From a virus (Duplodnaviria > Caudoviricetes), in IMG/VR virus record IMGVR_UViG_3300029705_000042: a stretch of 64,000 bases of DNA, one strand, 5' to 3'. Shown piece after piece: positions 1,640 through 32,560 of the stretch. The notes beneath the pieces were generated by a model. It saw nothing but the letters and a program-made list of their open reading frames with translations, was not told the origin of the DNA and ran no database searches. How positions within the stretch are numbered: position 1 is the first letter of the stretch; every line of letters starts with the position of its first letter. The position numbers were made by a program, and so were the translations under genes.

Positions 1640-1676
1640 TACTTTTTTTAAAAAAATATCATTTAAAATTAAGTTT

Positions 1677-1934
1677 TTAAAGCTCTTCGGTATAATGATT
1701 GATGGTGTATATAATATCATCTGCACAATTTTTACAATACATTACTTGTGAGCTTAATTTTTCATATGGACTTTTTTCTAACTCACGACTGTATGACGAT
1801 ATAGCATTTGCACAGTCACTAATATCATATTCATACTTGGGCTTAGGATTAAGCTCTGCTTCACCGACAGTGATTGTATAATAATGTTTTCCCACAATCT
1901 CTTTTCCACATCTATCACAATGCAACTTAACCAT
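1677..1934 (-). CDS. Hypothetical protein, zinc-finger-like
   Basis: CDRC and CKNC pairs; co-oriented with neighbours. Confidence 0.6.
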   Translation of the reverse strand: MVKLHCDRCGKEIVGKHYYTITVGEAELNPKPKYEYDISDCANAISSYSRELEKSPYEKLSSQVMYCKNCADDIIYTINHYTEEL

Positions 1935-1937
1935 AGA

Positions 1938-3460
1938 TTACTCTCCCCACTTTCCAGTGTATCTTTCAATAAACTTTTCAGGAACAAATTCTGTATTTAC
2001 ACTAATATACGGACTTCTTTCAGTTTCATCTACATAACAAGTAATGGTAATACCACATCTGTACTTATAATCATTAACAATCTTTTCTGCATTATCAATC
2101 AAAGACTGACCACAATCCTTAATATTCTGAATGATATCATTATTCATCTTAGCCATCTAACTTACCTCTTAAAATATAATTTTTATGTATCCTTCTTTTC
2201 TTCTCTGCAATGTACACTGTCCCAATCATAATCTGCATCCCTTACCATTTTCGCAATCTCTCTCAAGACATCATTGTATGCAGCATGTTTCCCATTGACA
2301 AAGCCCCTTTCGTAATCGGTTTTACAATGTCCAAAATTCATTAGCCTCTTTGAACGAGAACAAAAATACTGCAAATTATATAAAAGTTTTCTGTATTTTT
2401 TTATATTAATACTTCTCATTATCGTACTCTTTCCCAACGAATAGTTTCAGGGAATATATGGTTGGAATCAAAAAACTTAATAGTGTTATGACAAACAGGA
2501 CAATTTATGCAATTGTAATGCTGCTTGTAAACATTAATATATTCTTCGGTTGGTCTAAAAAGATGTTCACAAGTCTTCCTTAGACCACCTCGTTTTTCTT
2601 CTACCAAGTGAAACATATCCGAATCCGTATATTCCAAATCGGTGTTACAAAATCGACAGGTTGTTCTGTGAACTTTTTCATATCCTTTTTTAACTACTCT
2701 CATATTAGCCTCTTTAATATCTTCAATTCACAATGCAAACAGGTGTTACATCTTCTTTGGTCAATTCATATTCCTCAAGGTATTCTTCAAGGTCTTCTTC
2801 TCTGTACATCTCGCCATCTTCGTCAACATATCTAAAACTTGGGTCAAAATATACTTCGTGATATCCATTACCTTCGTCATCCGTAGCATACCAACAATCA
2901 AGGTCGCCATGCTCTGCCATAAACTCCTGCAAATTCTTAATCATCTCTGAAATCTTCATAATTAGTTCTCCTTTAAAAATATTATCAACTTGATATTGTT
3001 AACTTCTCAATAAAACCCTTCATTAATTCCTTAATGAAATCTTTGTCTTCGTTATCGTCCATACATTCGGATTGAGCATACCATTCATCGGAACCAACAG
3101 ATTTATAAATCACATATTCACCAAATCCAATATCAGAAGCCCATCTAATAACGAAGCCAACAAATTTATCGTTTACAAATGGTTCAATGTCATAAGCTTC
3201 TAAATTAATCTTATTAACCTCATGCTTTCTTGCCATATTTACACCTCTTAAAAGTATATTTTTATTTGTTCAGGCTCTTTTAAATCCCAATCGTTATGCC
3301 CAAGACTATACATTTCTTCGTAACATTGTTCGGTTATTGGTATAGCAATACAATTAGGACATCCAATTTGTTTGCACAATTCTTCTGGTGTTATAGGTAA
3401 TTCATTTTTAACATAACAAAGAGGAACTTGTGAACTTGTGCAAATTTTATAATACTTCAT
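1938..3460 (-). other. Block of small hypothetical phage genes (1938-2156, 2183-2437, 2419-2703, 2723-2959, 2985-3236, 3248-3460)
   Basis: Tightly packed co-oriented ORFs with AGGAG/GAGGT-type RBS. Confidence 0.65.
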
Positions 3461-3489
3461 ATTCTTATCACCACTTAAAGTTTCATTTT

Positions 3490-3828
3490 TTATGTTGCCA
3501 ATCCAATACTCTCAATTCTAAAATCAGATATCTTTCCATCTTCAATTTTATTAATAATAATATTAGCACCACTATGAAATACAACGCCATCTAATGTCAT
3601 TCTGCAAACTTGATTCTCATAATCCCAAGTACTAATATTATCGGTAACAAAACCAATAACCTTATCTTGATATCTACTCTCCTTATCTTTGTAAATAATC
3701 GGAGTGTTTATACTAAAATTACTAATAGCATTTTCAACAGCTTCTTTGGTAAATACAGTTCCATTCTTATTTGGCGTATCAAATGCAATAGGCATTGTAA
3801 TTTTTATCTTAATCAAATCATCTTTCAT
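3490..3828 (-). CDS. Small protein resembling the N-terminal part of the phage prohead protease
   Basis: PNKNGTVFTKEAVENAISNFSINTPII resembles LNFNGSIFDKEIVDENIETIKNTPIL in the ORF at 54220. Confidence 0.5.
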   Translation of the reverse strand: MKDDLIKIKITMPIAFDTPNKNGTVFTKEAVENAISNFSINTPIIYKDKESRYQDKVIGFVTDNISTWDYENQVCRMTLDGVVFHSGANIIINKIEDGKISDFRIESIGLAT

Positions 3829-3870
3829 AATTGTTCATCCATTAAAACTCTATTTTTATTAGATACCAGA

Positions 3871-4532
3871 TTACTTTTCTTTACAGTTTACATAGGCAGC
3901 TTTAAAATATGTTTCTGTATATTCGCCCATACCATATCCCTTGGTTCTTGAACTAACTGAAATATCAACATTATCAGTTGTAACTGTATATCCTTCTCTA
4001 TTTAAATAATCTGCAATAATTTCTTTTACATCACTTTCTGAAAGTTCAATTCTAATATTCTTTTTAATCTTCATATTATTCACCTTTTAAATTCTTTTGC
4101 TTCTTATCCAAACATTCACCTAAATCTTTTAAAACATTATAGATGTTACGATAAAATCCATATTTTGATACAACTTCTACTCCAAGTTCTTCCAGATGGT
4201 TTATTGCTAAATCCAATTTTCGTTTCTCTTCCATTTCTTCTTCGAAGGTTTGGTCATACGCTAAAACTCCAAAATTGAGGTCTAAAGCTCTCTCTACATA
4301 TTTATCGCTTGAAATACTACTAATACTACTCATGTTTTTATCTCCTTTTAAAATTTTATTTTTATTAGCTCTTTACTATCTTTCTACGCTTGCATTTCTT
4401 ACAAACATATACCCATTTATGATATGAAGGTATACTATCGTAGTAACTATCATACACTGGAACCTTTTCCATCAAACATTCCCATTCGTGCTTGCAAAAC
4501 CAAGAGCGAATTATATCGATTATATATCCCAT
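3871..4532 (-). other. Small hypothetical genes (3871-4083, 4076-4333, and 4365-4532, a 55-aa Cys/His-rich ORF)
   Basis: Co-oriented ORFs with RBS; 4365-4532 translated by hand (MGYIIDIIRSWFCKHEW...CKKC). Confidence 0.6.
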
Positions 4533-4555
4533 AATCTACCTCTTAAAGTTTGTTT

Positions 4556-5170
4556 TTATAGCCTTAATTCTTTTGCAACATACAACGCATAGCCCCAATT
4601 CAATTCTTTTGGTTGATTACAAATTTGCCTGTATGCCAAGAACATCATTTTTGCAATTACATCATACGAAACTCTACCAGTTAAACCACCAAAAGCAGGA
4701 ATTACTATACTGTCCACATCTTGTTTTAATGCTTCGATAAGTGTAGTTCTCATACATTGATAAACAATTCTGCTATCTACAATTTGCTCAGGAGTTCTCA
4801 TGCTTGGAGTATGAATTAGAATTGGATTACATTGCAGTATTCTTCCGTTATCTATTTGCTTATCATAAAACCTGCTTACAATTGGAACACTGATACTTGT
4901 TCCCACTGGTTGCTCTCCATACCAATCCATAAGAATTACATCTTGGACATCTTTCATAAGTTGCTTTCCAAAGTAATCTGTAATTGCTTTGTCGTAGCCA
5001 CCGTCCATAAGACCAAATGAGTTGGCAGGAGATACAATGGCTTCAATGTCTGGATGCTTACCCATAAAAGTTGCAAAATCTTCGTTTACGATTTCGACAT
5101 TTGGCAAATCAAAATATTTGTACCAAGCATCTGTCATTGATTTGTTGATATCCAATAAATATATCTTCAT
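4556..5170 (-). CDS. Macrodomain protein (ADP-ribose binding/hydrolase, Appr-1-P processing family)
   Basis: Motifs AIVSPANSFGLMDGGYDKAI, HTPSM and IPAFGGLTG. Confidence 0.85.
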   Translation of the reverse strand: MKIYLLDINKSMTDAWYKYFDLPNVEIVNEDFATFMGKHPDIEAIVSPANSFGLMDGGYDKAITDYFGKQLMKDVQDVILMDWYGEQPVGTSISVPIVSRFYDKQIDNGRILQCNPILIHTPSMRTPEQIVDSRIVYQCMRTTLIEALKQDVDSIVIPAFGGLTGRVSYDVIAKMMFLAYRQICNQPKELNWGYALYVAKELRL

Positions 5171-5195
5171 AATACTACCTCTTAAAAGTTTGTTT

Positions 5196-8100
5196 TTAAG
5201 TGTTGCTTATAATCTCTTCAACTACGAATTTAGGGATATAAACAACTCCGTATTCTTCGTTAGTATCAAGATAATATTTTAAAGTTTTCTTTATATGGTC
5301 TGTATTGTAAATAAAATCTTTGCAAGTAATTTCTTTATCTGCAATTGTGCTATATTCACATATTGCATAATGCAAACATTTTTTACACTTCATGTTATCA
5401 CCACTTAAAATTCGTATTTTAAAATGCCATAATATGTCCCGATTCAACACCAAGTCGAGTAAGTTGTTCAACCTTGCGTTCAAGTTCGTCTACTTTTAAT
5501 CTAAGACTATCTCGCTCTTCAAGCACAACAGAATATTCTTCCATTGCTCTTGCTACCTTTAGACTTTGATTCTCTTTTGCCCTTAAAATCTCACATTCAG
5601 CATCAATATTCTTTTCTGCATTTTCCATAAGAAACTTGTAGTGTTTTCTACTAATCCACATAACTTCACCTCACAAATATTCTTTTTTTACTTTTTCCCA
5701 AAATTCTATTCGTTCTTTTGTAAGAACCTTCTTTGCAACATGTTTATCCGACACTCTTTTACCAATATAAGCGTGTCGGTGACAATAATGATACACATTG
5801 TTATCAATATTACAATGGAATGACTTTGGATGATTAGCTTCTCTGCAACATATACAACAGTATTCTTTTACCGTCATTCTCTCATTTGTAGTTTTAATTA
5901 AATCGGATTCACTTTTGAACTCTGAACAGCTCTCGCCATTAACCAGAACATCGTTGAAATTCGGTGCATAAACCGCACAAACTACATGATGAATACAATC
6001 CCTGCAAGTTGACATTATCAGCTTCCTCCAATATTTCTTCTGTGATTCGGCTTATTACTCTTATTACATCTGAAACTTTTACTTCATCTTTGTCGGTATA
6101 TGTTCCAAAGTATATTGCCACATCTTCTTGTATCTTTCGTACAATATTTACCCTGAGTTGTACAATACCATCATATATTTCATCAAGCATTCTCATTTGA
6201 TTTTGATGTTCTATTCTCGATTCTTCGCTTTGTTTTTTAAGAAGGATTACAGAACTATCAATATCATATTTTAAATCTTCGTTTTCTTTGATAAGTTCCT
6301 TGATAAGTTGTAAAACAATATCTGCCAAATCGCTCGAACAATTCTGTTCACAAATGCCTTTTGTTTCAAAATAACAGCCAACACAATTTGAAAAATTAGG
6401 CTGCGATGCAAAACATTCCAAAGCCTTTATAATTTTTTCTTTATCCATATTTACTTATTATACCTTTCAGTAAGTTTGTCAAGCTCATGAATGCATTCCC
6501 ATACCGCCTCTGCTCTTCCTTGATAAAACATTTGCCATTTTTCATCAAGTCTGCGTTTATCTGCATGATTTCTATATTTATGGTAGAGTTCAACGAGATG
6601 GATTCTTGTCTGCCACAAATCATTTACAATTTCACTCTGTTTATGGTAGCCCTGTTCTTTTACAATTCTCTCAATCGTTATACATTGAGTCATAGGCAAC
6701 TTTGTTTCATTCCATAGTTTCCAAGCAAATTTAGAATAACCACTCATACCCATCTCATTAAGATTTTGATAGTCATTTGTTGTACTTATATCAATATGTT
6801 TTTCTCTATCCATATCAACCTCTTAAAATATGTTTTTTATTCGTTTAAATCTTTCCATTCTGCATTGCCTGTTAATAAAGCATATATGCCAAGAGCTTTA
6901 TCTCCATGAAATATATTTACAATCTTTAAGTCGTTTTCTCTGATTCTTCCGACACATAAAGTTGGCGCATCAGACAAAGTGCAATCATAAGTTATCGTTA
7001 AGTAATCTTCCATATCAACCTCACAATGCTTCTAACTGCTTTTCAAGTTCATTAATTTTTTTATCGCAATACTCACGAATTATATTGGTTAATTCATTGT
7101 CGCACAAAGTAATTTCATCTTTACAATAAGCAGACAGCCATAAAAACTTCTTCATTAAGATATATTTCTTATAAGCACTATCACATATCCTTCGAAGCTT
7201 ACGATAATTCTTTAGCTCTTCGTGTATCTCTTCTGCCTTTTTATATGTTGCAATTGTCATATAATCTTACCTCTTAAAACACCCATTTTATTATTCTTCA
7301 TTCCAAACAATGCTCTCGTATTCTTCGGGCATTAACCAATAAGGATAAGCGTCACCAAATTCCTGTTCGCCATAATTATAATCAATGGCAACAATGCCAA
7401 GACCCTTTTCATCATATCGAACAGTCATAACATACTCGGCATTAAGCAAGAATATAACCGCATCTCTGATAGCGTTTTCAAATTCTTCCTGAGAATCATA
7501 TTTATTTCTACAAATTACAATCTGATTAACTTTGTTCATATATCTTTACCCCTTATTCCTTTATCTTTCTAAATCCGTAAACATACTTTGCAAACCGCTC
7601 CCAGTTCAAATGTAATTGGTCATAAAAATCTACCTTCTCACCGACATCAAGATTAACATAATACCTATAAGTTCGACGCTCTTCTCGCTCTTTATTCAAT
7701 CTGTCAAGCTCTTCATTGTCAATGTGAGGCACCCACGAAGTAATTACAATCTCACATTCCGCTCTGCTCCAAAAATGATACCGTGCAATACGATTTAATT
7801 TTTCAGAGAACTCATCATAGGTTAAATTTTCCTTTAATAGTTTTTCAACATCCTCTCTAAAAGAATGATGTTTAAACACATTATATATCTTTATCTCTCT
7901 ACCATTAATATCGTGGTCATATACATTCCAAATCATCTGATTCTTTTCGTTCATACTTTGCGCCCTCCTTTGATTTGGTCATAAATCTACTACACACCTT
8001 ACCGCCGCAAGCTGTTTCACAACCAACGAAATATTTACATTCAGGACACTCTCGCTTTATGTTTATTGCTTCGCTTTCTAACCACATCTTGATTACTTGT

Positions 8101-10610
8101 TTATTGTCTGGAATATCATCCATATCTTGAAAAAATCTACACTTATTATTTAGTTCGCAGTAAGCACACATATGTTCAAAATCTAAGTCCTTTTCGTAAA
8201 CAACCTCTGGCTTACATTTGTTACAATAATTTGTTTCCCACCACTTTAAATAAGGGGTATCATCATTGAATACAAAATATTCATCTATCCAATCAACAAG
8301 CTCGTCAATATTTTTGTTTTTAATATTCTCAAATACTGTCATGATATCATTAGCCTTTCTTAACTCTAATCACAAAATCATCTGCGTCTTCGCACGAATA
8401 CCAATCATATCCATTATAGATTTCAATGTCGGTAATGTTTTTCATATCGTCATCGCATAAAACATTCATTACAGGCTCAACTTGATAAATCTCTTTGCCG
8501 TTCTTAAACCAAACCGCCTCAAGCATCATAATATCATCCTCCATAAAATAAACTTTTTAAGTGCTTATATATTTAATTCATATTTTTCTTTGAGTCTTGC
8601 TAACTCAGCTAACTCTTTTTGTCTAAGTTCTTCTTGCTTCTTTTGTTCTGCTTTTAATTTATATGGCGCTATAAATTGGTCATTCATTAATTTAATATAT
8701 TCGTCATAAACCTTTCTACTATTACCATATGCCAAAAGCTGATATAAATAATCTTGTGCAATTTTTTCTGCTAATTTTCTATTATCCTTCTCAATATTTA
8801 CATGAAAAGCAATCCAAAATCCACCATTTCGTATATTATTAGGTTTTAGTTCATCGGAAATATAACATTTATATCTGTTTGGTTCGTCTCTCATAATCCA
8901 TTCATTGTCCTTAGAATCAAAAACAATTTCGTGGTCGTACTTTAAAGTAATCTTAGACAAATCCTTTTCATTTTGAAGGTCTTTTATTTCTCGGACATAA
9001 TAGTCACCAGCACCATAAGCTGCACAATATTTGTCTGCATCCAAACGATTGTTAAAGTAACCAACTACATACCAATCACTGTAACAACCACCAAAAACTC
9101 CATATACCATATTACTTACCTCTTAAAATATTCTTTTTATTTGTTTTAATCACAATCTAAAACAATGACCTTGCTACTATGACCAATATCAGCAATGCCA
9201 TTTATATTGAAGGTGTGATATGTTCCCCAAGAACTCTCTATCGTACATTGCGAATCATCATAGAATATACCTTCAACTTCAAAGTCTGGATACTTTAACA
9301 ACAATTCAGCCAAATCTTTTGCTTTCATGCCCTTACCTCACTCTATCCAAAAATAAGTTACATCCTGCAAATCTTTGAGCCAACTGTCTTCACAGAATTT
9401 TTCCCAATCATTAATAATGGTTACGAAAAATCTTTTGCAACCTTCGATTGTACCCCAACCATTTTCGGCTTCGTACTTCTTATATTTTTCTGGATACTTT
9501 AACAACTCGGCATAACCATCTATGATACGAGGAATAACATCTTTGCACAGCCCATTGTTCTCTTCATTCTTCCATTCAAGACCAGTAGACTTTACAATCA
9601 TATCTCTAAGATTCCAAGTGATATTGGCATCGCTGTCATAAACTCCAACATAACGATTATCAAGACCTTCAACTTTTACCTTAAAACTAATATCGTATGA
9701 CATATTCTTACCTCATGTATATTTTAAGTAATCTCTTTACAAATTCTCAGTGCTTCTTCAAGGTCGGATATCAAAGGTTTTACCCAATAAGGACTGAAAC
9801 AATTTATAAATTGACCGTACTTTCTCTTGAAAAATATAGTTCCATCGTCTTCTGTACCAAGAACCAATAAGGGATGCTTACTATCCTTATTAATTATCAT
9901 TACAGGCATAACAGCATCGCCACTTGTCATAAAAACAATATCGTATTCTTCCTTCAACTGTTTTAATGTATCGTCATCCCAACACTGGTCTTCTGCGCTA
10001 AACATCATAGGCTCATCATCTTCTAAATTTTCGTTAAAAATAAAGCTCAACATATCTATTACCTCATAAAATCTCGATTTTAATTTCTTTCGAGTATCAA
10101 TTTTCTATAACAATCTTCAAATCGCCAATCATATTCATCGACGCCATCAATAAATCGCACCTTATATGATTCTACACCATATAAATAATAATCAATATCT
10201 ACAATTTCACCAATCTGTAGATACCTCTTGTGCGATTCATCTGTAATAAGTATATAATCTCCACTTCTTAACATGTGCGCTCCTCATCAATCTCGATTTT
10301 AATTTCTATTATCAGCAATTTGAATTTTTGCTCTGTAATGAACCTGCTCTTCAAAAAACTCAGGGTTAAAACTTGTTGTATACGATATGTCCATATGGTC
10401 GATTATTTGTTCGCCTAATCGTTGTGCTAATCTATCTCTAAAACATCCTTCTGGCAACCTCTCAACATCTCGCTTATTCACAACAATATTTTCTTCGAGA
10501 GTTATAAGCGGTTTATACGAATGTGTAATTGTAACCTCTTCAAAAACAGTAGGTTCAAGTTTTCTTAATATCTTTTTAAGAATTTTAATTAACCATTTTC
10601 TCATATACAT
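5196..10610 (-). other. Array of about 17 small hypothetical phage genes (e.g. 5419-5661, 5671-6015, 5939-6448, 6451-6813, 6837-7013, 7021-7260, 7291-7539, 7553-7954, 7917-8342, 8350-8544, 8565-9110, 9146-9328, 9338-9703, 9724-10053, 10080-10274, 10299-10610)
   Basis: Dense co-oriented ORFs with RBS; many end at a TAAAA-N6-TTTTA site. Confidence 0.7.
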
Positions 10611-11629: not shown

Positions 11630-11837
11630 TCTTTACTATTACAATTTTGCCCTCGTAAATATCCTTATAAATATTCTGTATCTTACGGTATCCCATATTA
11701 TAAAGTTTTTCTGCAGTGTAAGTTGCCTCGCCTATGTTCATATCGGGCGTTGGGCAACTCGTCCAGATATCGTTTGCCATTTCCTCAATCTCTTTATTGC
11801 GTTTTCTCATGCTTGCTTACCCTATAAAAATTTGATT

Positions 11838-12101
11838 TTAATTGTTTCTTCCGACTGTGCAAATAAATTTAATGAATTTACAAAACCACCAAATTATTGA
11901 AAAAACAGGGCAAAGTAGATTAAAGATTAGACATACTACTCCTGTTCCAAAATAATTTAATTCCCATTCATCATATATCCAGATAGGACTCAGTATATTA
12001 TTATCGTCCGAAGGTCTAAGCTTATTTACCCAGAATATCAGAAGAAACAATCCTCCAAATATATGCCAGACAAGCAAAACAGCTATATACCAAGGCATCA
12101 T
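11838..12101 (-). CDS. Small membrane protein
   Basis: Two hydrophobic segments. Confidence 0.6.
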   Translation of the reverse strand: MMPWYIAVLLVWHIFGGLFLLIFWVNKLRPSDDNNILSPIWIYDEWELNYFGTGVVCLIFNLLCPVFSIIWWFCKFIKFICTVGRNN

Positions 12102-12587: not shown

Positions 12588-12801
12588 TTAAAATCCTTCT
12601 TTTATAATCTCTAACCTTTTCAAGTCTTCCCAATGTGCATTTTGAAATCTCTTGATTGCTTCTTCTTTAGAAAATGATGGTTGCTTTTCTACATATGCAA
12701 CACCCATTTCGTATGAACTTCTTATGACCTGATATATATATCGTTTAAACACTTCTACATCAAAAAGTATAGTACTCTTTTCCATCGCTTAAACCTTTCT
12801 T

Positions 12802-14644: not shown

Positions 14645-14682
14645 ATAAATTTATTCCTTTCTTATTTATTAAAAACCTTATT

Positions 14683-14823
14683 TTATTTGCTCTTTATTTT
14701 CTTATACCGAGGGCAATCTTTTGTTGACTTATTTCCACAAACAACATTATCCATATACCAAATACAACAACCGCCCTCTTTAATTGCTTTCTGATATATC
14801 TTACAGTTCTTACATTTACTCAT
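14683..14823 (-). CDS. 46-aa six-cysteine peptide (paralog of 17801-17944)
   Basis: Hand translation MSKCKNCKIYQKAIKEGGCCIWYMDNVVCGNKSTKDCPRYKKIKSK; GAGGT RBS. Confidence 0.7.
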   Translation of the reverse strand: MSKCKNCKIYQKAIKEGGCCIWYMDNVVCGNKSTKDCPRYKKIKSK

Positions 14824-15430: not shown

Positions 15431-16189
15431 CTACATTATTTGAGAATTGTCATAAGACCAAGTTCCAAAATATATTTCTTCTGCTTTCTTTCGTGCCTTA
15501 ACAGCATCTTCAAACTTATCAAAAAATCCTAAATGCATTTCATTTCTGTCCTTTGATATTCTCGCATGCCATTTCCCAATTCTTTTATTCCAACTAACAC
15601 CAGTTACACCACTTGTATTATCACTCTTCAAACCTTTGTTCATTTGATTTTGACTGTTGGTTGCAACTCTAAGATTATACTTCCTATTATCATTTCTTGT
15701 CTCTTTTCCATGGATATGGTCAACTTCTACTTTTTTATATGAAACTTCAGTTAATCCCATTACGAGCCTATGCATCTGAATGTTTTTCTTTGAATTTTTT
15801 ATGTCTTTTGCGACAATATATCTATTGGCACCGATATGCCAACTATAATCTTTTATCTTTTCATAATCTTCTAAGTCAAAATAAAATTCTTCGCCATTAG
15901 CAGTATATCCTATTCCATATTCACCAGATAAATCGTATGTATTATATTTCTTTTTCTTTATTGCATTACTTTCTTTTGTTCTTTCCGTCTTAAGACATCC
16001 ACAAGATTGTGTTTTCTTGCTATGTAACTGTGTGGCACGAACAATGACTTTAGTTTTATTTTCGCAACTACATTCGCACAACCACTGCGAATCGTGCCTC
16101 CCTTTCGGTGAAATATAATCTTCTACTTGTTCTAAAACGGTTAATCTATTAAACTTTTGTCCAGTTAAATCTTTTTTCACTTTAACCAT
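15431..16189 (-). CDS. HNH-AP2 homing endonuclease
   Basis: DLTGQKFNRLTV N-terminal domain, HNH core MHRLV...VDHIHG...DNRKYNLR...N, and AP2 domain SGVTGVSW...WHARI...HLGFFDKFEDAVKAR. Confidence 0.85.
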   Translation of the reverse strand: MVKVKKDLTGQKFNRLTVLEQVEDYISPKGRHDSQWLCECSCENKTKVIVRATQLHSKKTQSCGCLKTERTKESNAIKKKKYNTYDLSGEYGIGYTANGEEFYFDLEDYEKIKDYSWHIGANRYIVAKDIKNSKKNIQMHRLVMGLTEVSYKKVEVDHIHGKETRNDNRKYNLRVATNSQNQMNKGLKSDNTSGVTGVSWNKRIGKWHARISKDRNEMHLGFFDKFEDAVKARKKAEEIYFGTWSYDNSQIM

Positions 16190-17772: not shown

Positions 17773-17800
17773 CTCAAAATTTCCACTTAAAACTTTACTT

Positions 17801-17944
17801 TTAAGTCCCCTTTTTATATTTATATTCCGTACAATCTTTTACAGATTTATTTCCGCAAACAACATTGTCCATATACCACTTACAACAAGCAAACTTGTTC
17901 AAGGTCTTGTTGTATGTCTTACAAGTCTTACATCTATTATCCAT
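17801..17944 (-). CDS. 47-aa six-cysteine peptide (paralog of 14683-14823)
   Basis: Hand translation MDNRCKTCKTYNKTLNKFACCKWYMDNVVCGNKSVKDCTEYKYKKGT. Confidence 0.7.
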   Translation of the reverse strand: MDNRCKTCKTYNKTLNKFACCKWYMDNVVCGNKSVKDCTEYKYKKGT

Positions 17945-18669: not shown

Positions 18670-18749
18670 ATAAGAATATTCTGATAATTAAAGTTGCACA
18701 TTTTTTTAATATTTAAAAACAAACTTATTTTGGCTTTAAAATCTGTCTT

Positions 18750-19517
18750 TTAATCTTTTTTCTCTTCGGTCTTCTCGCAGTAAATTGTTCCTTTTAACTC
18801 CGCAAAACTATGTAACATCCAATGATGGTGGATATTATACGGATGTCTGAAGCAGGATTTATTATTGCATTTCGAAGAACAGAAAGTAATATCATCACTT
18901 GTCCATGAACTTTTCTTTTTCATATTTTCCACCTCATTGCTCTACATCACAGAACGCACCGTTCACATACATCTTTTCAAGATTGTGTGCAATTCGTAAT
19001 TCTCTGTCCGTCATTTCCCAAATAAGTTTCCATCTATCATTTTTATCTCTAATATAAATCATAGGCATTTTCTTTTCGTCATCCCAACACCAAAAGTTTG
19101 AGAATGCGTCAAGAGAGTTTGTATATACCTTTGTATCAAAAGAGCAATGGTCTTTGATATATCTTAATTTTCTACGACAATTGCTAAACCCCATTCCTGC
19201 ATCAATTTCAATAAGGTCTTCGCCAGTCTCTAATAATGCTCTATGGTGATTAAGCCAACCATCTTCAAAATAAACTATCATATTTTCCACCTCACAAGGC
19301 TATAAAATTCGCCTTTTATTTATTACATACCGCTCTTAATGTAATAAATTTTCGACTGAAGCCTACCAACTCTATCCATAACGGACAGATGCCAACCGCA
19401 CTTACTTCTTCCTTTTTCCATCTGTCGCTTGTATTCTTCATTGTGCTTCAAAAAATATTCCGTAAGAGCAGCGTCAATCAATTCAAGTTCTTCCTTATTA
19501 AACATAGCTACCTCCAC
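18750..19517 (-). other. Three small hypothetical genes (18750-18932, 18934-19290, 19323-19517)
   Basis: Co-oriented ORFs. Confidence 0.6.
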
Positions 19518-19605
19518 TTAAAATTTATCTTTTATGTTATGTTTATAACCTTATCTTTTATGTATTCGGTAAGTGGAATTATCTTCCACTTCCGATTGCA
19601 GATAT

Positions 19606-19656: not shown

Positions 19657-20715
19657 TTATTTTTTGAAAAATTCCGTATAGGATTTTCCAATAGCGTTAT
19701 GTCTTGCTGTGATTGAGGCATTACGAGCGATTCCATTTGAACAAGCCTCCATATATGCAGAGTATGTTTCAGAATCGTTTTCAGTTTTGAAAAAGTTTAC
19801 CATAAACTCTGCAAACATTGCTTCGTTAATTTTCCCAATGGATTGTTTAATATACGGAATAAGGGAAATTAAATGTGTTTCCGTATATAGCTTTTTCGCC
19901 ACATCCTTCTCCTTATTACCTACTAATTCTTCATGTACACTCACCACATAATCAAATACTTTAGCAAGCTCTAATTTTTCACTATCGGAAATTTCCGCTT
20001 CCTCAATCATAGGATTAAACTGTTTACTTGCAAAAGAAATATCTTCTATATCTTTATTAAGCATCGTCCAAGCCTTCATCACAAGGGTTACTTGATTCTT
20101 GCTTGCTCTTGCTTTTTCCGTCAACATTTCTTCAAAGAGTTTGTGCGAACCAATATCAAGTAGCTCTTCAATATTCCGAGCAGATGCCAATGTCCTTGCC
20201 TTAGTTGACAAAGGTTTCCCATTATTTAACCGCTTAAACAACTCCCTTTCTTCTTCTTTGGTAAGATTGTCAAAGTATGTTACTGCAAATGTTACGGTAT
20301 TGAGATAATCCTTTAATCCCTCTGGCAGCTCACTAAATTTCTTATTAGAAATATCTACGACAACTTCTTTATCTTCATCTGTATCAAAGTAGGTAATAGG
20401 TTGTAACTTGGATAAAGCAAACTCATCGTTCAAAAATTCCTTTACAGTTGAAAGTCTTTGCTTACCGTCCATAATATAGTATGTGTTACTACCTCTTTTA
20501 CCGCTTCCATCGTCAATCCGTTTTGCATATACTGTTGGTATAGGATAACCAAGAATCATACTTTCAATTAGCGAAGATTTTCTTGCCCTCTCCCAAACAA
20601 AGCTTCTCTGGATAATGTGTTCAAAATTAATTTTTTCGTTCTTAACCATTCCGCTTAATTGTTTTGCCGACCAAACAATACTTGCTTTCTCTAATGACAT
20701 AAAGAACAACCCCAT
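19657..20715 (-). CDS. DUF262 (ParB/GmrS-like) domain protein
   Basis: Motifs QRSFVW, GYPIP, DGKQRL and FKRLNNG; no HNH/DUF1524 C-terminus seen. Confidence 0.75.
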   Translation of the reverse strand: MGLFFMSLEKASIVWSAKQLSGMVKNEKINFEHIIQRSFVWERARKSSLIESMILGYPIPTVYAKRIDDGSGKRGSNTYYIMDGKQRLSTVKEFLNDEFALSKLQPITYFDTDEDKEVVVDISNKKFSELPEGLKDYLNTVTFAVTYFDNLTKEEERELFKRLNNGKPLSTKARTLASARNIEELLDIGSHKLFEEMLTEKARASKNQVTLVMKAWTMLNKDIEDISFASKQFNPMIEEAEISDSEKLELAKVFDYVVSVHEELVGNKEKDVAKKLYTETHLISLIPYIKQSIGKINEAMFAEFMVNFFKTENDSETYSAYMEACSNGIARNASITARHNAIGKSYTEFFKK

Positions 20716-20739: not shown

Positions 20740-21540
20740 TTAATTATCAAGAAAATCCAATCCAAGATTCAAGCTGTTAAATACATCTTCAATTTCTTCA
20801 TCCATAATTCCAATATACCTTTTCGTGATAGCCACAGATGAGTGGTTGAAGATTGTCATTAACATTACCAAAGCCTTTTCTTTATCTTCTGCGTTATGCC
20901 ATACATGATAACCAAATGTTTTACGCAAGCTATGTGTTCCAATATTGCGTTCAATTCCAACTTCAATAGCGGTATTGGAAATAATTTTCCAAACACTTCT
21001 TTCAGAAATTGCATTGTCACCTTTTCTGGATTTGAAAACAAAATCGTTCATATCCTCAATCGGATATTGTTTTGTATATTCAATGATTGTTTTCTTTACA
21101 ACATCATTAAAATACAATGTAACAAACTTACGATGCTTCTTAGTTTTCTTTGGCTGAACCTTATAAGAATCTTTAAATGTCATATCATCTTTTAAGAAAA
21201 AATTCCAACGAAGTGTGATAAGGTCGCTGATACGAAGAGAAAGATTGATACCGATTAAAAACAGCATTTTATTCCGACAAGCAATCTGTTTCTTATTTTC
21301 ATCAGGAGCTTCTTCAATGCGTTTATTAAATACATCAATCATAGACTTAATCTCTTCTTCAGAAGTGAATGGATAAACCTCGCTTGATACACCAGCAACC
21401 TTATTACTATGTCGTTTGTCAATAGTTCCATCCTTATTAAGTCTAACTTCTTTTTTGGATAGTCCGCCACGAATAACCCTTCCAGAAAATCCGTTAAATT
21501 CTATAACATTGCTTGTTGAAGTTTTTGGTAAAGCACTCAT
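20740..21540 (-). CDS. Tyrosine recombinase/integrase (compact, mainly catalytic domain)
   Basis: Complete R-K-H-R-H-Y set: LRISDL, KKTKK, THSLRKT, NHSS, TKRYI. Confidence 0.9.
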   Translation of the reverse strand: MSALPKTSTSNVIEFNGFSGRVIRGGLSKKEVRLNKDGTIDKRHSNKVAGVSSEVYPFTSEEEIKSMIDVFNKRIEEAPDENKKQIACRNKMLFLIGINLSLRISDLITLRWNFFLKDDMTFKDSYKVQPKKTKKHRKFVTLYFNDVVKKTIIEYTKQYPIEDMNDFVFKSRKGDNAISERSVWKIISNTAIEVGIERNIGTHSLRKTFGYHVWHNAEDKEKALVMLMTIFNHSSVAITKRYIGIMDEEIEDVFNSLNLGLDFLDN

Positions 21541-24410: not shown

Positions 24411-24411
24411 C

Positions 24412-24498
24412 TGGTGCTGGAGAAGGGATTTGAACCCTCACGCTTGTAAAAGCACAAGATTTTAAGTCTCGGATGTCTGCCAATTCCATCACTCCAGC
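24412..24498 (-). tRNA. tRNA-Leu (anticodon TAA)
   Basis: Acceptor GCTGGAG/CTCCAGC, anticodon loop CTTAAAA, long variable arm, GGGTTCAAATCCC T-arm, encoded CCA. Confidence 0.92.
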
Positions 24499-24682: not shown

Positions 24683-26795
24683 TCAATAAAAAAGCTCCGT
24701 CATCACATTAGACTTGGATACATTATATTTATCTGCAATGTATTCAATAATCTGTTTCTGTATATGTTTGCTTCTTTCCCCAATGGCTTCGCCAATAATG
24801 TGAATTAGTTCAATAGCCTCATCATAATTAGTAAACAATGCTCCGCAATCAGAACTATCGTCTTGCTTTAATTTTTCAAGACCAGACTCGGTATAACATT
24901 CTGTTTTTCTTGCACAAGCATAACAGTTTCTATTCATTATCTAATTCCTCCATATAAAATTGTGTTTTTATCTATTAAGTAAAGAGATTTTCCTTAACAT
25001 AATCAAACCAATATATCTTTACATCTTCCTCGTCAATTTCAAATCCGTCAATCTCTTTTATTGCTTCTTCGTGGTCTTTTTCCCAACTACTTGTGATATA
25101 ATTTACACAATAATCATCATAAGGAAAGTCCAAATTATCCAAAATTTCAATAACTAAATCCGCTCTCATAATTTAATCCTCCTAAATAATTTTTTTATCC
25201 GTAATAAGTTCCGCAAATATGACAGATTCTACTTCTGTAATCAAAATCTTCCGTCAAATACTCACCAAGTTTTGATTTAAGTTCATCTATAATTTCTTCT
25301 ATATCATTATATGCTTTCTTAAACAATGTGGGATAATGTGTCAGCGGTACATAGGCAATGATATCGCCTCTATAAGATTCATAATCTCTGCCCCAATCAA
25401 AATATCCATCATCGTTGATTGTCCGTGCTTCGCCAGTAAACTCACTTATATATTCACAAATTCCTTCATCAAAAAGAATGTATGCAAGGTCTGTATCTTC
25501 ATCCAGAGGCTCAACATCTAACTTTGATATGACTATTTTCATCGTTTCCTTATCAAATACCAAACCGTAATCATCAATCGCCCAATCTCTCGTACTCATA
25601 ATAATTTCCTCCTATATATTTATTAATTAAAATCATTATTTTATTTGTTGTTAATCATAAGATGTGCGTACTTTTCAACAACGCCATAAGTTAATTTAGT
25701 CGGCTCTTCTGTATCGTAATAATCTACTTCCGTATATTTATCCAACACAATAAGATACAAAGGAATACAACCAAACAAAAACCATCCAATATAATCCGTA
25801 ACAATCATATGTTCATACTTGTTTCGTTTCTTGTTCCAAAACTCAAATCTAATTTTCCGATAAGGCTTTTTAACAATCATAAATCCTCCGCTTAAAACCA
25901 CACTTTTATATCTTATCTATATGCTCTTGTTCTGTATCAATAGTCATTGTTTCAAAGTCTAACCAATATCCATTATCCAAACGCAGACTACCATTTTGAT
26001 TTTTTACCATAATGTCAAAACAATACATAAACTTTGTCCAAGTCGGCATAAGTCTATATATAAATTTATATTCCATCAATTTATATAAAAACTTTTTCAT
26101 ATATCATTACCTCTTTAAAATCACTCTTTTATGTGGCTTTCTATTTTCTTTCCCACAAACATCAACACAATGTCAAACATTATTACAAATATTATCCATA
26201 TTGCCAAATCAATTGTGCCTGCAAAATCAAGTTGACAACCATTGATAAAATAGATAAATATAATAGTCAAACAACACATAGAAATTGCAATTGGTTTAAT
26301 ATATTTATTAAATGAAAGCATTTCTAATAACAAGGCGATAACAAAAGCCATTAGTATATCTGTAATCATATATCTTTACCTCTTAAAATCGTCATTTTAA
26401 CACGCCACAATTCGCAACATATTTAATCTTGCATATCTTATGGCACTTTTAACTATATCCATACTCGCTTGTTCATACTTCGTAAAATCAAAAGTAACAT
26501 CTTTAACCTTAAAAGAGCCACCTTGATTTTCTTCTACACTCTTAAGGCAATCACATACAGTTTCGATTTCGTCCATTGTTTTAAGTGACACAGAAATTTT
26601 ACTTCCAGTATACTCCCAATCTCCAATCTTTTCTGTACAACCATCATTCCAAATCTTTGTTCCTGCTCCCTGCGGAGGCTTAATCCCCTTGAATATAATC
26701 GTTTGACCTATCACACCTACATCAATACCACCATATCCAAAAAAACAAGTGTTTGTTTTTATATCCACATAATCAACCATTACAAAATCCTCCAT
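24683..26795 (-). other. Small hypothetical genes (24683-24937, 24975-25169, 25195-25599, 25641-25901, 25906-26100, 26121-26369 membrane protein, 26397-26795)
   Basis: Co-oriented ORFs, most bounded by TAAAA-N6-TTTTA. Confidence 0.65.
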
Positions 26796-26822
26796 TTAAA
26801 ATTATCCTTTTAAGATATAAGC

Positions 26823-27476: not shown

Positions 27477-27482
27477 ATAAAA

Positions 27483-28003
27483 TTAGTCTTTTAATTTATT
27501 TGCTATGACGGACAATTCCAAAAGCACCTCGGAATTTCTGTCATACTTTTCAATTTCTTCATCCGTAAATCTTTCGGTCTTTTCATCCATCTTCCAGTTC
27601 TCTTGTTGTCTCTTGATTTCTTCCATCCTAACCAAGCACATAAGAATTGTTTGCTCTCTGTTTGTTAATTCAACTGTTTTCATATTTGAATACTCCTATA
27701 AATTTTCTTATGTATGGTTGAACGGATTTTATTCCGTTCAACCTATTCTTAATGTTTTATAAATCACCAGTTTTCCTTATCAATTACTGCGTTATGCTTC
27801 ATAGCATATTCATAAAAATCTTCCGTATCATCTGCGGTATATTCTGTTAGAAAATCTTCCAAGTCTTTGAAGTATTCGCCTTTGTTGCATTCTTTGAAGT
27901 ATTGTTCGGCAAATTCTTTTGTGACTAAAACTTCCGTTAAGTTTTCACTTTCATCATGTTCCTCAATCGTATCACGATAAACGCAAATCCATAGTTTTTC
28001 CAT
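27483..28003 (-). other. Two small hypothetical genes (27483-27683, 27764-28003)
   Basis: ORFs with RBS, separated by a hairpin at about 27716-27743. Confidence 0.6.
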
Positions 28004-28664: not shown

Positions 28665-28712
28665 GATTCATCACTCCTGATGTTTTTTATTTACTTCTTA
28701 CCTTACACCTAT

Positions 28713-28747
28713 ATTATAGCATATAAAACATACATCGTCAAGTAGTT
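28713..28747 (-). promoter_or_regulatory. Sigma70/A-type promoter
   Basis: AACTAC-TTGACG-17-TATAAT. Confidence 0.75.
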
Positions 28748-28809
28748 TTCAGAATATTTTCTGTAAAATATTACACAAATTTTCCGTTAAGTTTTTGTAT
28801 ATTTTAACT

Positions 28810-28851
28810 AAAAAAGTTTGGACAGATAGACTTTCCATCTATCCAAACTTT
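28810..28851 (-). terminator. Intrinsic terminator
   Basis: AAAGTTTGGATAGAT...ATCTGTCCAAACTTTTT on the minus strand. Confidence 0.65.
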
Positions 28852-28861
28852 CAATCAATGC

Positions 28862-29257
28862 TTATACAAACAATGCTTTGACTTTAAATTCCGCTCCATT
28901 TGGATATGTTATATTAATATCCATTTGCAACTCTTGTTTTACAATCTTCACTTGTTTATCGTTCAATTCTATTGTATTTCCTTCTTTGTCGTGACTTGCA
29001 AATACACAATTACCAAAGATGACATCTAAAACTTGTTTAGTCTTTCCGTCAACAACGGCAATCTCTGCTTTTAATCCTTCGATATATTTACCTTCCTCGT
29101 TGATAATTACATCAATTACATTGTCACGAAACTCCTTGCTTATAAACGGAAATTCAATATAACCGCCTACAATGGTTTGTAATTCCTCCAAAGTGTTTTT
29201 AATTTCTTGCTCCTTGAATTGTCCGTTGCTTAATATCAACACCTTCATAGGAAACAC
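28862..29257 (-). CDS. DUF3846-like protein
   Basis: NTLEELQTIVGGYIE...INEEGK motif. Confidence 0.65.
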   Translation of the reverse strand: MFPMKVLILSNGQFKEQEIKNTLEELQTIVGGYIEFPFISKEFRDNVIDVIINEEGKYIEGLKAEIAVVDGKTKQVLDVIFGNCVFASHDKEGNTIELNDKQVKIVKQELQMDINITYPNGAEFKVKALFV

Positions 29258-29272
29258 ATCCTTTATTATAGT

Positions 29273-29678
29273 TTATCCTTCTATATGCTCCGTTACCTCA
29301 CCAGTTAAGATATGACTTTTAAGTGATATATATTTTCCATCACGCTTAAATACAATTACATTTACGGCTGGCTGCTCAAACCATTCGTCCGTTTCTCTTT
29401 CACCATAATGCTCTACATAATACTTGTACAAATTACTGTTAAATTGTTCTTTAGTTAAAATTGCCATTACAACACCTCTTATATATTTTTAATTATTTTT
29501 CCGTTACTTCCCCAGTTTGCATATCACAAACAAGAATAATTGTTTTGCCATCACGGTCAAATTTCCAAGTGTTGACCGCAGGATTTACATACCAAGCATC
29601 CGTATCACGCTCTCCAAAATGCTTTTTATAGTATCTGTCAAGTCGTGTGTGCAACTGTTTTTCCGTTAAAGTTTTCAT
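29273..29678 (-). other. Two tandem paralogous small genes (29273-29467, 29493-29678)
   Basis: Both contain LT..Q....L..YY..H.GER.TD.W...PAVN...F.RDGK.I.L.....TGEVTE. Confidence 0.7.
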
Positions 29679-29903
29679 TATATCTCACTCCTTATTTATA
29701 ATATACTTTAAAATATTGTCTTACATTGTTTTGGATAGCAGAACAAACAACCCACGCATATCCTTCCGATTTGATTTTTCCAATACAAATCACTTCACCA
29801 AGTTTTGCTTCGATTGCTGGAGATTCTTTAATACATTCCATATAGATATTATACCAAACCTTTTTCATGTTTCATCACTCCTTATATATTTTCCAAGCAA
29901 TAT

Positions 29904-30392
29904 TTAAATTGCATTGTCATCAATGATAAAATCCAATCTTGTTAATACATCGTCTTGTTCATTTGTAAACGGATTATAGATATAATATGTTAAGATTTTA
30001 TCTCCTTCTTTTGCTCCGTCTACACGCTCATAACTGATATAATTTCCACCATCTTTATTTGTATAACCACCATCATCAGTATTACAATTAAGGATTTCTC
30101 CATCTAACTTATGACTTGTAACCTTACCAATGATTTTTTCCACAACGATTTTTCCTTTTCTGTTCGCCATGACTTGCGGTGTTAGTTCGCTTGTATCATA
30201 GATTTCGATTGCGTTTACATCTTTAATCATATTGTCGTAAAATTCCATTTGTGAAACATTATCAACATATATTCCGTCATGTACTTTAGTTTCAGTTATT
30301 GATACATCATCTTTGAAATTCAAACCTATTGAAAATCCAACTGATAAACATATTCCAGTATGCAATACTTTTTGCAAGATTTTGTTCATCAT
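29904..30392 (-). CDS. Hypothetical protein with N-terminal hydrophobic/signal segment
   Basis: 162-aa ORF. Confidence 0.6.
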   Translation of the reverse strand: MMNKILQKVLHTGICLSVGFSIGLNFKDDVSITETKVHDGIYVDNVSQMEFYDNMIKDVNAIEIYDTSELTPQVMANRKGKIVVEKIIGKVTSHKLDGEILNCNTDDGGYTNKDGGNYISYERVDGAKEGDKILTYYIYNPFTNEQDDVLTRLDFIIDDNAI

Positions 30393-30669
30393 CCTTCATT
30401 CCCTTCGGCTTTGTTTAATGATTCAAAACTGGATGGAAGGTGTATAATTATTCAATTTTCCATCCAATGTTCAATCATTAAATGTCATTCGCAAGGCTTC
30501 CAAACCTCTACATATTTTCCGTTTGATTTTTCGTCTATAAAATCCTTCTCGTTGCAATGATAATATCCAGTAGCACTTAAAACTTCCGCATCATTATCAC
30601 TAACAAAAGCAACTCCGATTTCTTTAGTTTCTGCGTTCTTGTAGACTAAAAGCATTTTCCATCACTCCT

Positions 30670-32560
30670 TTAATTATTTTTGAGTTCCATCATTGCTTTT
30701 ATTAACACTTCATTCTCTGCATACTTTTTGATATAACGATAGCTCTTATAATTCGTCATGTTCTTATAAACATTGCCGATAATCAAATCTCCGTTATAGT
30801 CAAAGTAGAAAAGTATACCAACAGATTTTCCATCTTCTTTAAATTCTATGTGATACTTGTCACCTAACAGCTCTTTGTATACTTTCATTCCGTCAACTTC
30901 TTTATAGAAATGATAGTGAACAGTTTTGGTCATAATTAAAACCTCCGTTTAATCTTCATCATCGTATTCGCAACAATCGTTGATAATATCCACTATATCT
31001 TTAACAGATAACCATTCATATTTTCCGTTGACATAAACGCTACATCCGCATTCATCGTTTAAATCTCCGTACTTTCTCTCTAACAGTTCTAACAATTCTT
31101 CTTTTTCAATAAACATTTTCCAATCTCCGTTTTAAAATGATATTTTTATATGCTTGACAATATATTGTTTATTGAATATGTCATAATCCAATAATTAAAT
31201 CCTTGCATTTTTCTTCTGTTGTTGTTCATCTCTGTTGAATAATCGCAACAATCAATAAATTTATCCGTGATTTTCGCAAATTCTTTTTGTCCAAAATTCT
31301 CGTAAATTCCGTTTTCTTTTGCTTTTTTAGTTAATATCTTTTTTGCTCTGCTTATTGCTGTGTCAATCTTTTTACAGTTTAAATAATTTTCCATAATATT
31401 CTCCTTTAAAATAGTAGTTTTATAACCTTATATTTTATACTTCTTCTCCGTATGCTTCGAGAAATTCCATCTTCAAATCATCGACATTTTCTCCAATGCT
31501 TTCAAGGATTTTAATTGCCCTTCGTGTCATTTCCTTTGTGTCTTGTTCTTGCCTAATCTGTTCTGCAATACTCATATTAAAATCCTCCGTCAAACCAAAC
31601 CTTGTAAATTCATTACTCTTACACATAAAGCATCAAATTCTGCCTTTGTGATTTTCTTCCATTTCCAGAGCCAATCAATAGAACAAATACACCAGTAAAG
31701 GTCTAAACCAGTATATTTACTTGTTTCCAAGCAATCAAGAGTATCAAGTACAAGAGCATATCTCTTGTTGATTTCCTTTGCCTTATCGGTTTTCTTATTT
31801 GTTACCTTTTTCATAACTGCCTCCAAAATAATGAACATTCCCTTTGTTCTGCATACATTATACCACAAACAATCTACTTTGTCAAGTAGTTTTTAGAATT
31901 TTCTAACTGTTATTTTGCACAAAATTTTGACTTGTTTGTTGTGAAATTTGACTAATCCTCCGCTTAAAATGCGATTTTTATGTGGCGGTTTAAATTCTAC
32001 CGCCACATACTCTATCTTTTTCGTTGAAATAATCAACGATTTCATCCAACTTTTTTGTAACAAGAAAATCGGGAATTTCTCTGTTACCAAGAGTATGAAC
32101 GGGACAATGTGTATCCCTGCAATGCTTTACAAATCTCCGTAAAGCATCCCAATTATCAATGCCGTGCCAAACGATATGATATATCTCCTTTGGAAATTCG
32201 GGAAAACGATAAGTAATTAAATAATTTTTCATATCTTAAATCCTCCACTTAAAATACATGTTTTATAGTTTAATTTATCCACGCATTGCGTAAATCTTTA
32301 TAGTTTATTTTCTGTTTGACTATTAAATCGCATCCGTGATACCGCATTTTCAACTCCACTAAAAGCGATTTATATTCATCCTCTGTTGCCTTTTTGGTAT
32401 TGTGATAAAATTCCAAGTCCGCTTCGCTGTGTTGTCCTATGTGCATATAGGATAGAATTCTTCCATAATTTGCGCTTGCCTCTGGGAAGAATGCCACAAC
32501 CTCATATTTCTTTGTATATGGATTCTTTGCTTTCCTAAAGATAACCTTTACTTTTTCCAT
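30670..32560 (-). other. Small hypothetical genes (30670-30933, 31146-31394, 31435-31626, 31590-31814, 31990-32232, 32270-32560)
   Basis: Co-oriented ORFs with RBS; internal promoter at 31857-31891. Confidence 0.65.
31857..31891 (-). promoter_or_regulatory. Sigma70/A-type promoter
   Basis: AACTAC-TTGACA-17-TATAAT with extended TG. Confidence 0.8.

Follow-up and report, generated by a model that had tools for sequence, protein, structure and literature searches.

Why should one short palindrome recur at dozens of gene junctions in a single phage genome, with arms that stay fixed and a centre that differs from copy to copy? The question is raised by a 64,000-nucleotide stretch of viral DNA (Duplodnaviria; Caudoviricetes; IMG/VR record IMGVR_UViG_3300029705_000042), here called the window in its full length, where the 16-bp sequence TAAAA-N6-TTTTA punctuates a long array of small genes. 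Comparison with related phages shows that the sites are real, that their 6-bp centres are conserved, colinear and over-dispersed, and that the sites coincide with mosaic junctions. Judged from sequence comparison, the sites may act as addressed crossover joints at which accessory genes are exchanged in register, a proposal to which we give somewhat better than an even chance.

A palindrome between stop codon and ribosome-binding site

The window terminase is 47% identical to the terminase of Bacillus phage SPbeta and its relatives, and the portal and other structural proteins match phage families, so the window is part of a large SPbeta-like temperate phage. No close relative was found among cultured phages. 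The relatives used here are IMG/VR contigs whose terminases are 75-93% identical to that of the window, and the independent genomes compared are the window, G003, G013, G014, G018 and G001; G011, G015 and G007 are near-copies of G003.

An exact search of the window finds 35 matches to TAAAA-N6-TTTTA, while 100 dinucleotide shuffles give 1.20 (standard deviation 1.14, maximum 5), which confirms a preliminary description of this DNA that had counted at least 33 such palindromes at gene junctions against about one expected by chance. As described there, the matches are confined: 34 of the 35 lie within 1664-32265, none in 33-40 kb, and one in the structural arm at 63341. The proposed check, a scan of spacer lengths against shuffled controls, singles out the six-base spacer, since every other spacer from 0 to 15 yields only 0-4 TAAAA/TTTTA matches and the swapped-arm control TTTTA-N-TAAAA likewise yields 0-4. 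The motif is also abundant in the relatives, with 57 copies in G003, 54 in G011, 47 in G018, 44 in G014, 40 in G013 and 21 in G001, against 0-4 for the backwards control.

GC skew and the map of open reading frames (ORFs) place the genes of 1-41 kb on the minus strand, so the site is to be read on that strand. About 33 sites lie in intergenic gaps of 20-40 nucleotides (nt) within the minus-strand array, between the stop codon of the upstream gene and the ribosome-binding site of the next. The sequence aGAGGt or GGAGG follows the site directly, and the start codon lies 10-28 nt (mostly 12-17) past its end. At 12 sites the upstream ORF takes the first arm's TAA as its stop codon, as the ORF ends show (offset -3), and five further upstream ORFs terminate within the site. 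Both observations, the arm-borne stop at these twelve places and the ribosome-binding site after the other arm, had been made from the letters alone, and both hold.

About one in three gene junctions of the window array bears a site, and across the phage group neighbouring sites have a median spacing of 563 bp. Copies with one arm mismatch are rare, with 3-4 at junctions in the window, so all ten arm positions are under strong constraint. Outside the arms, conservation drops to near background, and the flanking positions in the window are not two-fold symmetric. The sites have neither promoter anatomy (no -35/-10 pattern within 30 nt upstream) nor terminator anatomy (no stable stem). The matches at 21256 and 63341 are probably the one or two chance hits expected.

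The array and its sites are as follows, with centres given on the sense strand.

1664-32265, minus strand: array of 34 TAAAA-N6-TTTTA sites among about 100 small minus-strand genes
1664-1679, minus: site, centre ACTTAA, common to relatives and colinear; followed by a sigma-A-like promoter instead of a ribosome-binding site
2170-2185, minus: site, centre ATTATA, common to relatives
3249-3264, minus: site, centre ATATAC, common to relatives
3843-3858, minus: site, centre ATAGAG, common to relatives
4349-4364, minus: site, centre ATAAAA, common to relatives and the distant phage G017
4543-4558, minus: degenerate second ACAAAC copy, right arm TTTAA; with site 5183 it flanks the macro-domain gene
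4556-5170, minus: macro-domain gene between the two ACAAAC copies
5183-5198, minus: site, centre ACAAAC, common to G013, G018 and G017
5406-5421, minus: site, centre TACGAA, common to five relatives
6824-6839, minus: site, centre AACATA, common to relatives
7275-7290, minus: site, centre TGGGTG, unique so far
8544-8559, minus: site, centre AGTTTA, common to relatives
9124-9139, minus: site, centre AGAATA, common to relatives
10067-10082, minus: site, centre TCGAGA, common to relatives
11825-11840, minus: site, centre TCAAAT, unique so far
12589-12604, minus: site, centre GAAGGA, common to relatives
14670-14685, minus: site, centre TAAGGT, common to relatives
16847-16862, minus: site, centre CAAGAA, common to G014; in G013 the corresponding place holds its reverse complement, TTCTTG
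17144-17159, minus: site, centre GAAGAT, common to relatives
17557-17572, minus: site, centre GCAGAG, common to relatives
17788-17803, minus: site, centre GTAAAG, common to relatives
18737-18752, minus: site, centre GACAGA, common to relatives; upstream of a promoter-like region and a SprT-like gene
19303-19318, minus: site, centre GGCGAA, unique so far
19519-19534, minus: site, centre GATAAA, common to relatives
21256-21271, minus: motif match in frame within the recombinase ORF, centre TGCTGT, found nowhere else; probably chance
24955-24970, minus: site, centre ACACAA, common to relatives
25628-25643, minus: site, centre TAATGA, common to relatives
25893-25908, minus: site, centre GTGTGG, common to G001 and G019
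26116-26131, minus: site, centre GAGTGA, common to relatives and G017
26384-26399, minus: site, centre TGACGA, common to relatives and G017
26797-26812, minus: site, centre GGATAA, common to relatives and G017
27478-27493, minus: site, centre GACTAA, unique so far
31133-31148, minus: site, centre ATATCA, unique so far
31407-31422, minus: site, centre CTACTA, unique so far
31965-31980, minus: site, centre ATCGCA, unique so far
32250-32265, minus: site, centre CATGTA, unique so far
63341-63356, strand not assigned: motif match in an AT-rich intergenic spacer of the structural arm; probably chance

The TTCTTG of G013 is an ordinary sense-oriented site, and its reverse-complement match to CAAGAA may be a coincidence. 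A related form of the element occurs in G003 (locus L046; plus-strand coordinates 109944, 110471 and 113883), where TAAAA-N6-TTTTA lies inside a longer repeated unit after terminator-like hairpins, of the form TCTCT-site-TTTTTT...CCAAAAAAAT...AATTTTTAAAAACTTT. This suggests that the arms can also sit within a promoter-like element.

Conserved centres, changing genes

The centres are shared between genomes far beyond chance, with 14-32 in common per genome pair against 1.2-2.1 expected. When they are followed in gene order across the five independent relatives and the window, 205 identical colinear pairs stand against six syntenic pairs with one mismatch, and the divergence of the centres is therefore about 0.5% per base. 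The structural arm, the best-conserved part of these genomes, has 72-77% nucleotide identity to the window, and the array is alignable between genomes over only 2-23%. Two elements of the preliminary description fall here: it had the site tolerating heterologous spacers and the array shuffling freely, whereas the centre is the most conserved DNA of the region, position-specific and strictly colinear, and order is kept between genomes.

Conservation ends close to the site. In the average of 207 same-centre pairs, the whole 16-mer is 100% identical, and identity drops to 0.59, 0.44 and 0.38 at positions -1, -2 and -3, where the background is 0.49, 0.31 and 0.34; on the other side a modest excess persists for about 8 nt over the ribosome-binding site, which makes the common stretch about 24 nt long. 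Both 90-nt flanks fall below 55% ungapped identity at 211 of the 214 shared sites.

The genes between the sites differ. Across the six genomes, 478 of 749 array proteins are singletons without a family partner, and when the same slot is compared (two addresses adjacent in at least two genomes), 96 of 113 comparisons have no protein family in common. For example, the slot from ATAAAA to ATAGAG holds five different contents in five genomes. Since centres are conserved and slot contents differ, the sites are fixed, labelled points with replaceable genes in between. Taken over all genes, 22% are shared in short slots and 44% in long site-free stretches (p = 1e-8), but the difference is not significant among genes under 120 amino acids (p = 0.13), and faster turnover in short slots is not claimed.

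Within a genome the centres also avoid one another. Pairs at a Hamming distance of at most 1 number 0 in the window against 7.8 expected, 1 against 10.6 in G014, 2 against 10.5 in G013, 3 against 14.5 in G018 and 8 against 20.7 in G003, where the null is column-shuffled centres per genome and the observed value was reached in at most 1 of 500 shuffles. No genome examined has two perfect sites with one centre, and the six genomes together hold at least 130 natural centres. Elsewhere in G003, no region was found that could be a master list of the centres (maximum 32 per 300 nt; null maxima 29-47), and a scan of genome contigs for one address, aimed at the host, returned chance matches only.

Cassette families are mostly found in the same slot, and some occupy different slots with homology beginning at the site. 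The gene at 2156-1938, downstream of site 2170, has a 70% identical homologue in G003 that lies two genes past that genome's ATTATA site. Additionally, there are two tandem same-centre duplicates, each bracketing one cassette and each with a single arm mutation in one copy: in the window ACAAAC encloses the macro-domain gene (5183 and 4543-4558), and in G003 the two copies of GAAACA are 330 bp apart. The macro-domain gene looks like the footprint of a single-cassette insertion, and such duplicates are what a circular cassette would leave if it inserted at its own address and one copy were then inactivated. Degenerate same-centre copies are at chance level genome-wide, and only these two adjacent one-mismatch duplicates are meaningful.

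The distant phage G017 extends the pattern beyond the group. Its genome, complete at 170 kb, has direct terminal repeats and a GC content of 39%, and only 22 of its 283 ORFs are in common with G003. G017 carries nine sites with shared centres. Its two mini-arrays (loci L199 and L201; 115793-116886 and 143788-144400) have the centres ATGTAA GGATAA TGACGA GAGTGA, and TACGAA ACAAAC ATAAAA, in the same identity and order as in the window's group and mostly with different genes, which suggests that junction sets are exchanged between phage lineages.

Cultured phages of the SPbeta group carry the site too. SPBc2 (SPbeta) has 34 copies against 2 in the control, many of their TAAs being the stop codons of yoq, yor, yos or yot genes, and phi3T, Goe14, Goe11 and BUCT083 have 30-34 each. 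The blocks that these phages share are 94-97% identical, which allows breakpoints to be located with precision. Among 128 same-centre site pairs from SPbeta, phi3T, Goe14 and BUCT083, both flanks are conserved in 34, one in 40 and none in 54. At 27 of the 28 non-redundant one-sided junctions, homology is lost 0-9 nt from the edge of the site, and at 15 within 2 nt. A homology breakpoint falls within 30 nt at 38% of gene ends with a site and 16% of those without (odds ratio 3.1, p = 0.001). The Bacillus group and the window's group have 6 centres in common against 4.5 by chance, so address sets belong to particular exchange communities.

How the sites might work

If the sites are addressed crossover joints, the invariant 5-bp arms, one helical turn apart, would be the place where a two-fold symmetric protein docks on double-stranded DNA, and the 6-bp centre would serve as a position-specific label. 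Exchange would occur within or at the centre and would need matching centres, same-centre sites being the preferred points of recombination, whether the partners are two phage genomes or a phage and a prophage already resident. Genes or blocks would be swapped in register, and each would retain its stop codon, placed within or ahead of the first arm, and its own ribosome-binding site beyond the second. Differing centres within one genome would prevent deletions between neighbouring copies, and the occasional integration of single-gene circles would make the duplications. We infer that recombination is the selected function and has a dedicated enzyme, and that the centre acts like the overlap region of Xer/Cre-type tyrosine recombinase sites. 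The agent could be a site-specific recombinase of the phage or a host Xer-type enzyme, a suggestion that we make with more doubt than belief; a site-directed nick or break followed by annealing or ligation is improbable.

Two neighbouring genes of the array bear on the question of the agent.

20740-21540, minus strand: small Xer-like tyrosine recombinase, 266 amino acids; R, HxxR, H and Y present by alignment to XerA
19657-20700, minus strand: GmrSD_N (DUF262, ParB-like) protein; in site-rich relatives, absent from G004 and G017

The recombinase is barely more than a catalytic domain (Pfam match at residues 60-244). Its best NCBIfam matches are the XerA, XerD and XerC models, at 49-55 bits against cut-offs of 220-335, and none of the integron-integrase models in NCBIfam reaches its cut-off. 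The preliminary description had linked this protein to the sites, and the link breaks down on distribution in both directions. Homologues with 58-59% identity occur in G004 and G005, which nearly lack junction sites (seven motif matches in G004, two of them junction-like, and seven in G005), and related small recombinases occur in many Streptococcus phages, including Javan553, which has the gene just upstream of its terminase genes and has no sites; no homologue was found in the site-bearing G017. The assignment of the 266-amino-acid protein as the enzyme of the site is accordingly not supported. Specific to site-rich genomes are the DUF262/GmrSD_N protein and two small neighbouring proteins, all absent from G017, and a nicotinamide adenine dinucleotide (NAD)-dependent ligase occurs in G003, G017, G018 and G014 and not in G004. 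The DUF262/GmrSD_N protein and the ligase may be regarded as weak leads only, in a comparison that amounts to effectively one independent contrast.

Several results weigh against addressed exchange. The evidence for it is comparative throughout. Known tyrosine-recombinase core sites have arms of 11-13 bp, far longer than the five bases here, the sole recombinase in the array does not co-vary with the sites, and comparison of gene distribution across the relatives yields no protein acting on them. Most breakpoints need no site, since 84 of 101 gene-end breakpoints in the Bacillus SPbeta group are at site-free junctions, and small genes (under 120 amino acids) turn over similarly in long site-free stretches (21% against 28% shared, p = 0.13). 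Furthermore, none of the eight crossovers that could be placed to under 100 bp in two laboratory phi3T x SPbeta hybrids is at a site; all eight are in ordinary shared sequence, and the others fall in long shared blocks where they are unresolvable. These hybrids say nothing on exchange between heterologous flanks, but they do show that sites are not needed between close relatives.

Those hybrids, formed by ordinary homologous recombination, and the many site-free breakpoints fit a different explanation, in which the site is a passive boundary. The arms would serve expression or bind a regulator, and general or short-homology recombination would resolve at the only sequence that divergent phages share; the conservation and over-dispersion of the centres would be by-products, comparable to the Susskind-Botstein linker model and to the promoter-early stem-loops (PeSLs) of T4-type phages. 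We consider this rather unlikely, though it has real points in its favour: the position of the site is fixed between stop codon and ribosome-binding site, the additional address-specific identity of about 8 nt over the latter lengthens the shared stretch to about 24 nt, gene distribution reveals no dedicated enzyme, and PeSLs offer a precedent (PMC2839356). Pure regulation, however, does not explain why site-specific centres diverge by about 0.5% per base when the backbone diverges by about 25%, and dozens of junctions use a shared stretch of 16-24 bp, which at best just reaches the length that efficient homologous recombination usually requires. Both surviving tandem duplicates carry one arm mutation, which also speaks against a passive role. 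PeSLs resemble the phage sites as short intergenic repeats of hyperplastic regions that end insertions, deletions and replacements of small ORFans (PMC2839356, PMC4122927), but they are promoter-plus-terminator units, with a sigma-70-type promoter and a terminator stem-loop, alike within a genome, which recombine with one another to shuffle genes and form mini-circles. The phage sites have neither promoter (in the 30 nt upstream) nor terminator (no stable stem), and their centres are distinct, over-dispersed and conserved in order.

A purely regulatory role, as a DNA roadblock, a prophage-repressor operator or an RNA processing or translation signal with no part in recombination, is very unlikely. 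The abundance of copies in short intergenic gaps of a temperate phage does recall the stoperators of Cluster A mycobacteriophages such as L5 (PMC3029335), the site adjoins the ribosome-binding site, and self-cleaving ribozymes stand between the genes of the adjacent operon at 34-40 kb, so this phage marks junctions at the RNA level. As RNA, however, the site is a 5-bp A-U stem with a 6-nt loop that averages +1.3 kcal/mol, has a median pairing probability of 0.13 in context and shows no compensatory variation between its arms; a free-standing RNA structure was rejected. An identity with SPBRE was rejected as well. SPBRE is likewise repeated in phages of this group, and the protein that binds it has a tyrosine-recombinase fold, but its sequence, seen upstream of yorE, yorZ and yosX, is a different one and overlaps about ten sigma-A promoters (PMC10516654), whereas SPbeta has 34 copies of the present site, placed at gene ends. 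The SPbeta master repressor MrpR gives 10 peaks in chromatin affinity precipitation sequencing (ChAP-seq), all at SPBRE promoters (PMC10516654), and binding of MrpR to the present site, as expected of a repressor operator, is thus not seen. Stoperators and the start-associated sequences (SAS/ESAS) of Cluster K (PMC3029335, PMC3203893) share with it their dozens of short intergenic copies beside starts and stops in temperate phages. Stoperators, however, are asymmetric 13-mers bound by repressor, and SAS/ESAS travel with particular gene families, whereas 96 of 113 slot comparisons here share none; neither has a position-specific centre or marks gene replacement. Regulation also leaves unexplained the conserved, colinear and over-dispersed centres and the breakpoints at the site.

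The preliminary description had proposed an integron-like array, in which the 266-amino-acid recombinase excises and inserts single cassettes of ribosome-binding site, ORF and site at any copy, tolerating differences in the spacer and shuffling freely. This is now highly improbable, although a recombinase with its catalytic residues aligned does lie inside the array, short arms would go well with an enzyme reduced nearly to its catalytic domain, members of some cassette families are found in different slots and two insertions are flanked by site duplications. As in integrons, promoterless single-gene units bounded by a recombination-type inverted repeat form a long one-directional array. However, attC sites are imperfect repeats of 57-141 bp, used as folded single strands with extrahelical bases, and travel with their cassettes; the phage site has 16 bp with perfect 5-bp arms, and it stays while the gene changes, both flanks being unrelated at nearly all shared sites. 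There is no IntI-type integrase, no attI and no Pc promoter, and the recombinase lies inside the array with sites on both sides. What survives of the mobile-cassette idea is the exchangeable gene unit bounded by sites, seen in the same site with differing genes in relatives, in breaks 0-9 nt away in cultured phages and in the two flanked insertions; free shuffling, the nearby tyrosine recombinase and membership among integrons do not.

Engineered systems also offer a parallel to addressed crossover joints. Heterospecific lox and FRT sites, made in two or three variants with 13-bp arms, are used for recombinase-mediated cassette exchange. They have constant arms and a centre that decides pairing, and since differing centres do not recombine, exchange proceeds in register without deletion. 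Unlike these few man-made variants, the phage sites are natural and numerous. The dif modules (pdif, XerC/XerD) of Acinetobacter plasmids (PMC6449649) also have inverted arms around a 6-bp centre, in many copies that bracket adaptive genes mobile between replicons in accessory regions, and their recombinase is not encoded beside the sites. The phage site matches this type in its strict six-base centre; it differs in its arms, which are identical with 5 fixed bp each, whereas pdif arms are 11 bp long with distinguishable XerC and XerD sides. Moreover, pdif centres are not order-keeping position labels, and the phages have 30-57 sites per genome fused to stop-codon and ribosome-binding-site punctuation. 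Position-specific, colinear and mutually distinct centres are not a feature of pdif/dif, lox/FRT, PeSL or attC sites.

No description of the site was found in the searchable literature under its motif, SPbeta repeats or boundary sequences. The boundary-sequence proposal for phage mosaicism has lacked clear examples, and such sequences were not found at most junctions (PMC3029335); here are dozens of explicit, individually labelled ones per genome, better preserved than any surrounding gene. The group includes the genetically tractable SPbeta, so the roles of arms and centre can be tested directly. As a tentative extension, which sequence patterns make conceivable and which we hold with considerable reserve, SPbeta-like phages may carry a natural counterpart of recombinase-mediated cassette exchange, with one arm-recognising enzyme and more than 100 mutually incompatible 6-bp addresses allowing in-register swaps, anti-defence genes included, without scrambling or deletion. 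If an enzyme were found, it would explain the rapid trading of accessory genes and of counter-defence genes, such as the macro-domain gene of this array and the NAD-related genes close by, and provide a ready-made set of orthogonal recombination sites.

Other features of the window and its relatives

Beside the array, at 33900-40300 on the minus strand, lies an operon with self-cleaving ribozymes in its intergenic gaps, which are about 100 nt long. The Rfam gathering score is passed by two pistol ribozymes (38558-38627 and 39361-39430) but not by a type III hammerhead (39032-39087, E = 6.5e-4) or by a twister-P1 (40190-40244, E = 0.009). Each gene of this operon is preceded by a shared A-rich leader, AAAAAGAGAAAAGGAAGG. 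In G001 (the record of L001; loci L047, L048 and L061), the region 9600-30800, the part of this genome that corresponds to the ribozyme region of the window, holds 80 copies of another palindrome, GTATA-W-TATAC, against 0.5 expected, with 2-10 per intergenic region beside terminators. These clusters look like operator arrays for another DNA-binding protein.

The window has two tRNA genes. One (24415-24498, minus strand) occupies a 400-nt gap inside the accessory array. The other (47106-47178, plus strand) overlaps the first bases of the ORF of a 452-amino-acid exonuclease as listed (47121-48479), and the true start of that gene may lie downstream. The plus-strand arm is headed by a 963-amino-acid protein (43470-46361, plus strand; phrog_8308, E = 2e-233) that is conserved in G003, G001 and G004.

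At the other end of the array, a phosphoribosyltransferase/Prs-like protein (198-1004, minus strand) comes after the sigma-A-like promoter that follows site 1664. Finally, a single array slot contains a 252-amino-acid protein (15431-16189, minus strand) with weak HNH_3 and AP2 matches, a homing-endonuclease-like combination, and members of its family sit elsewhere in the relatives.

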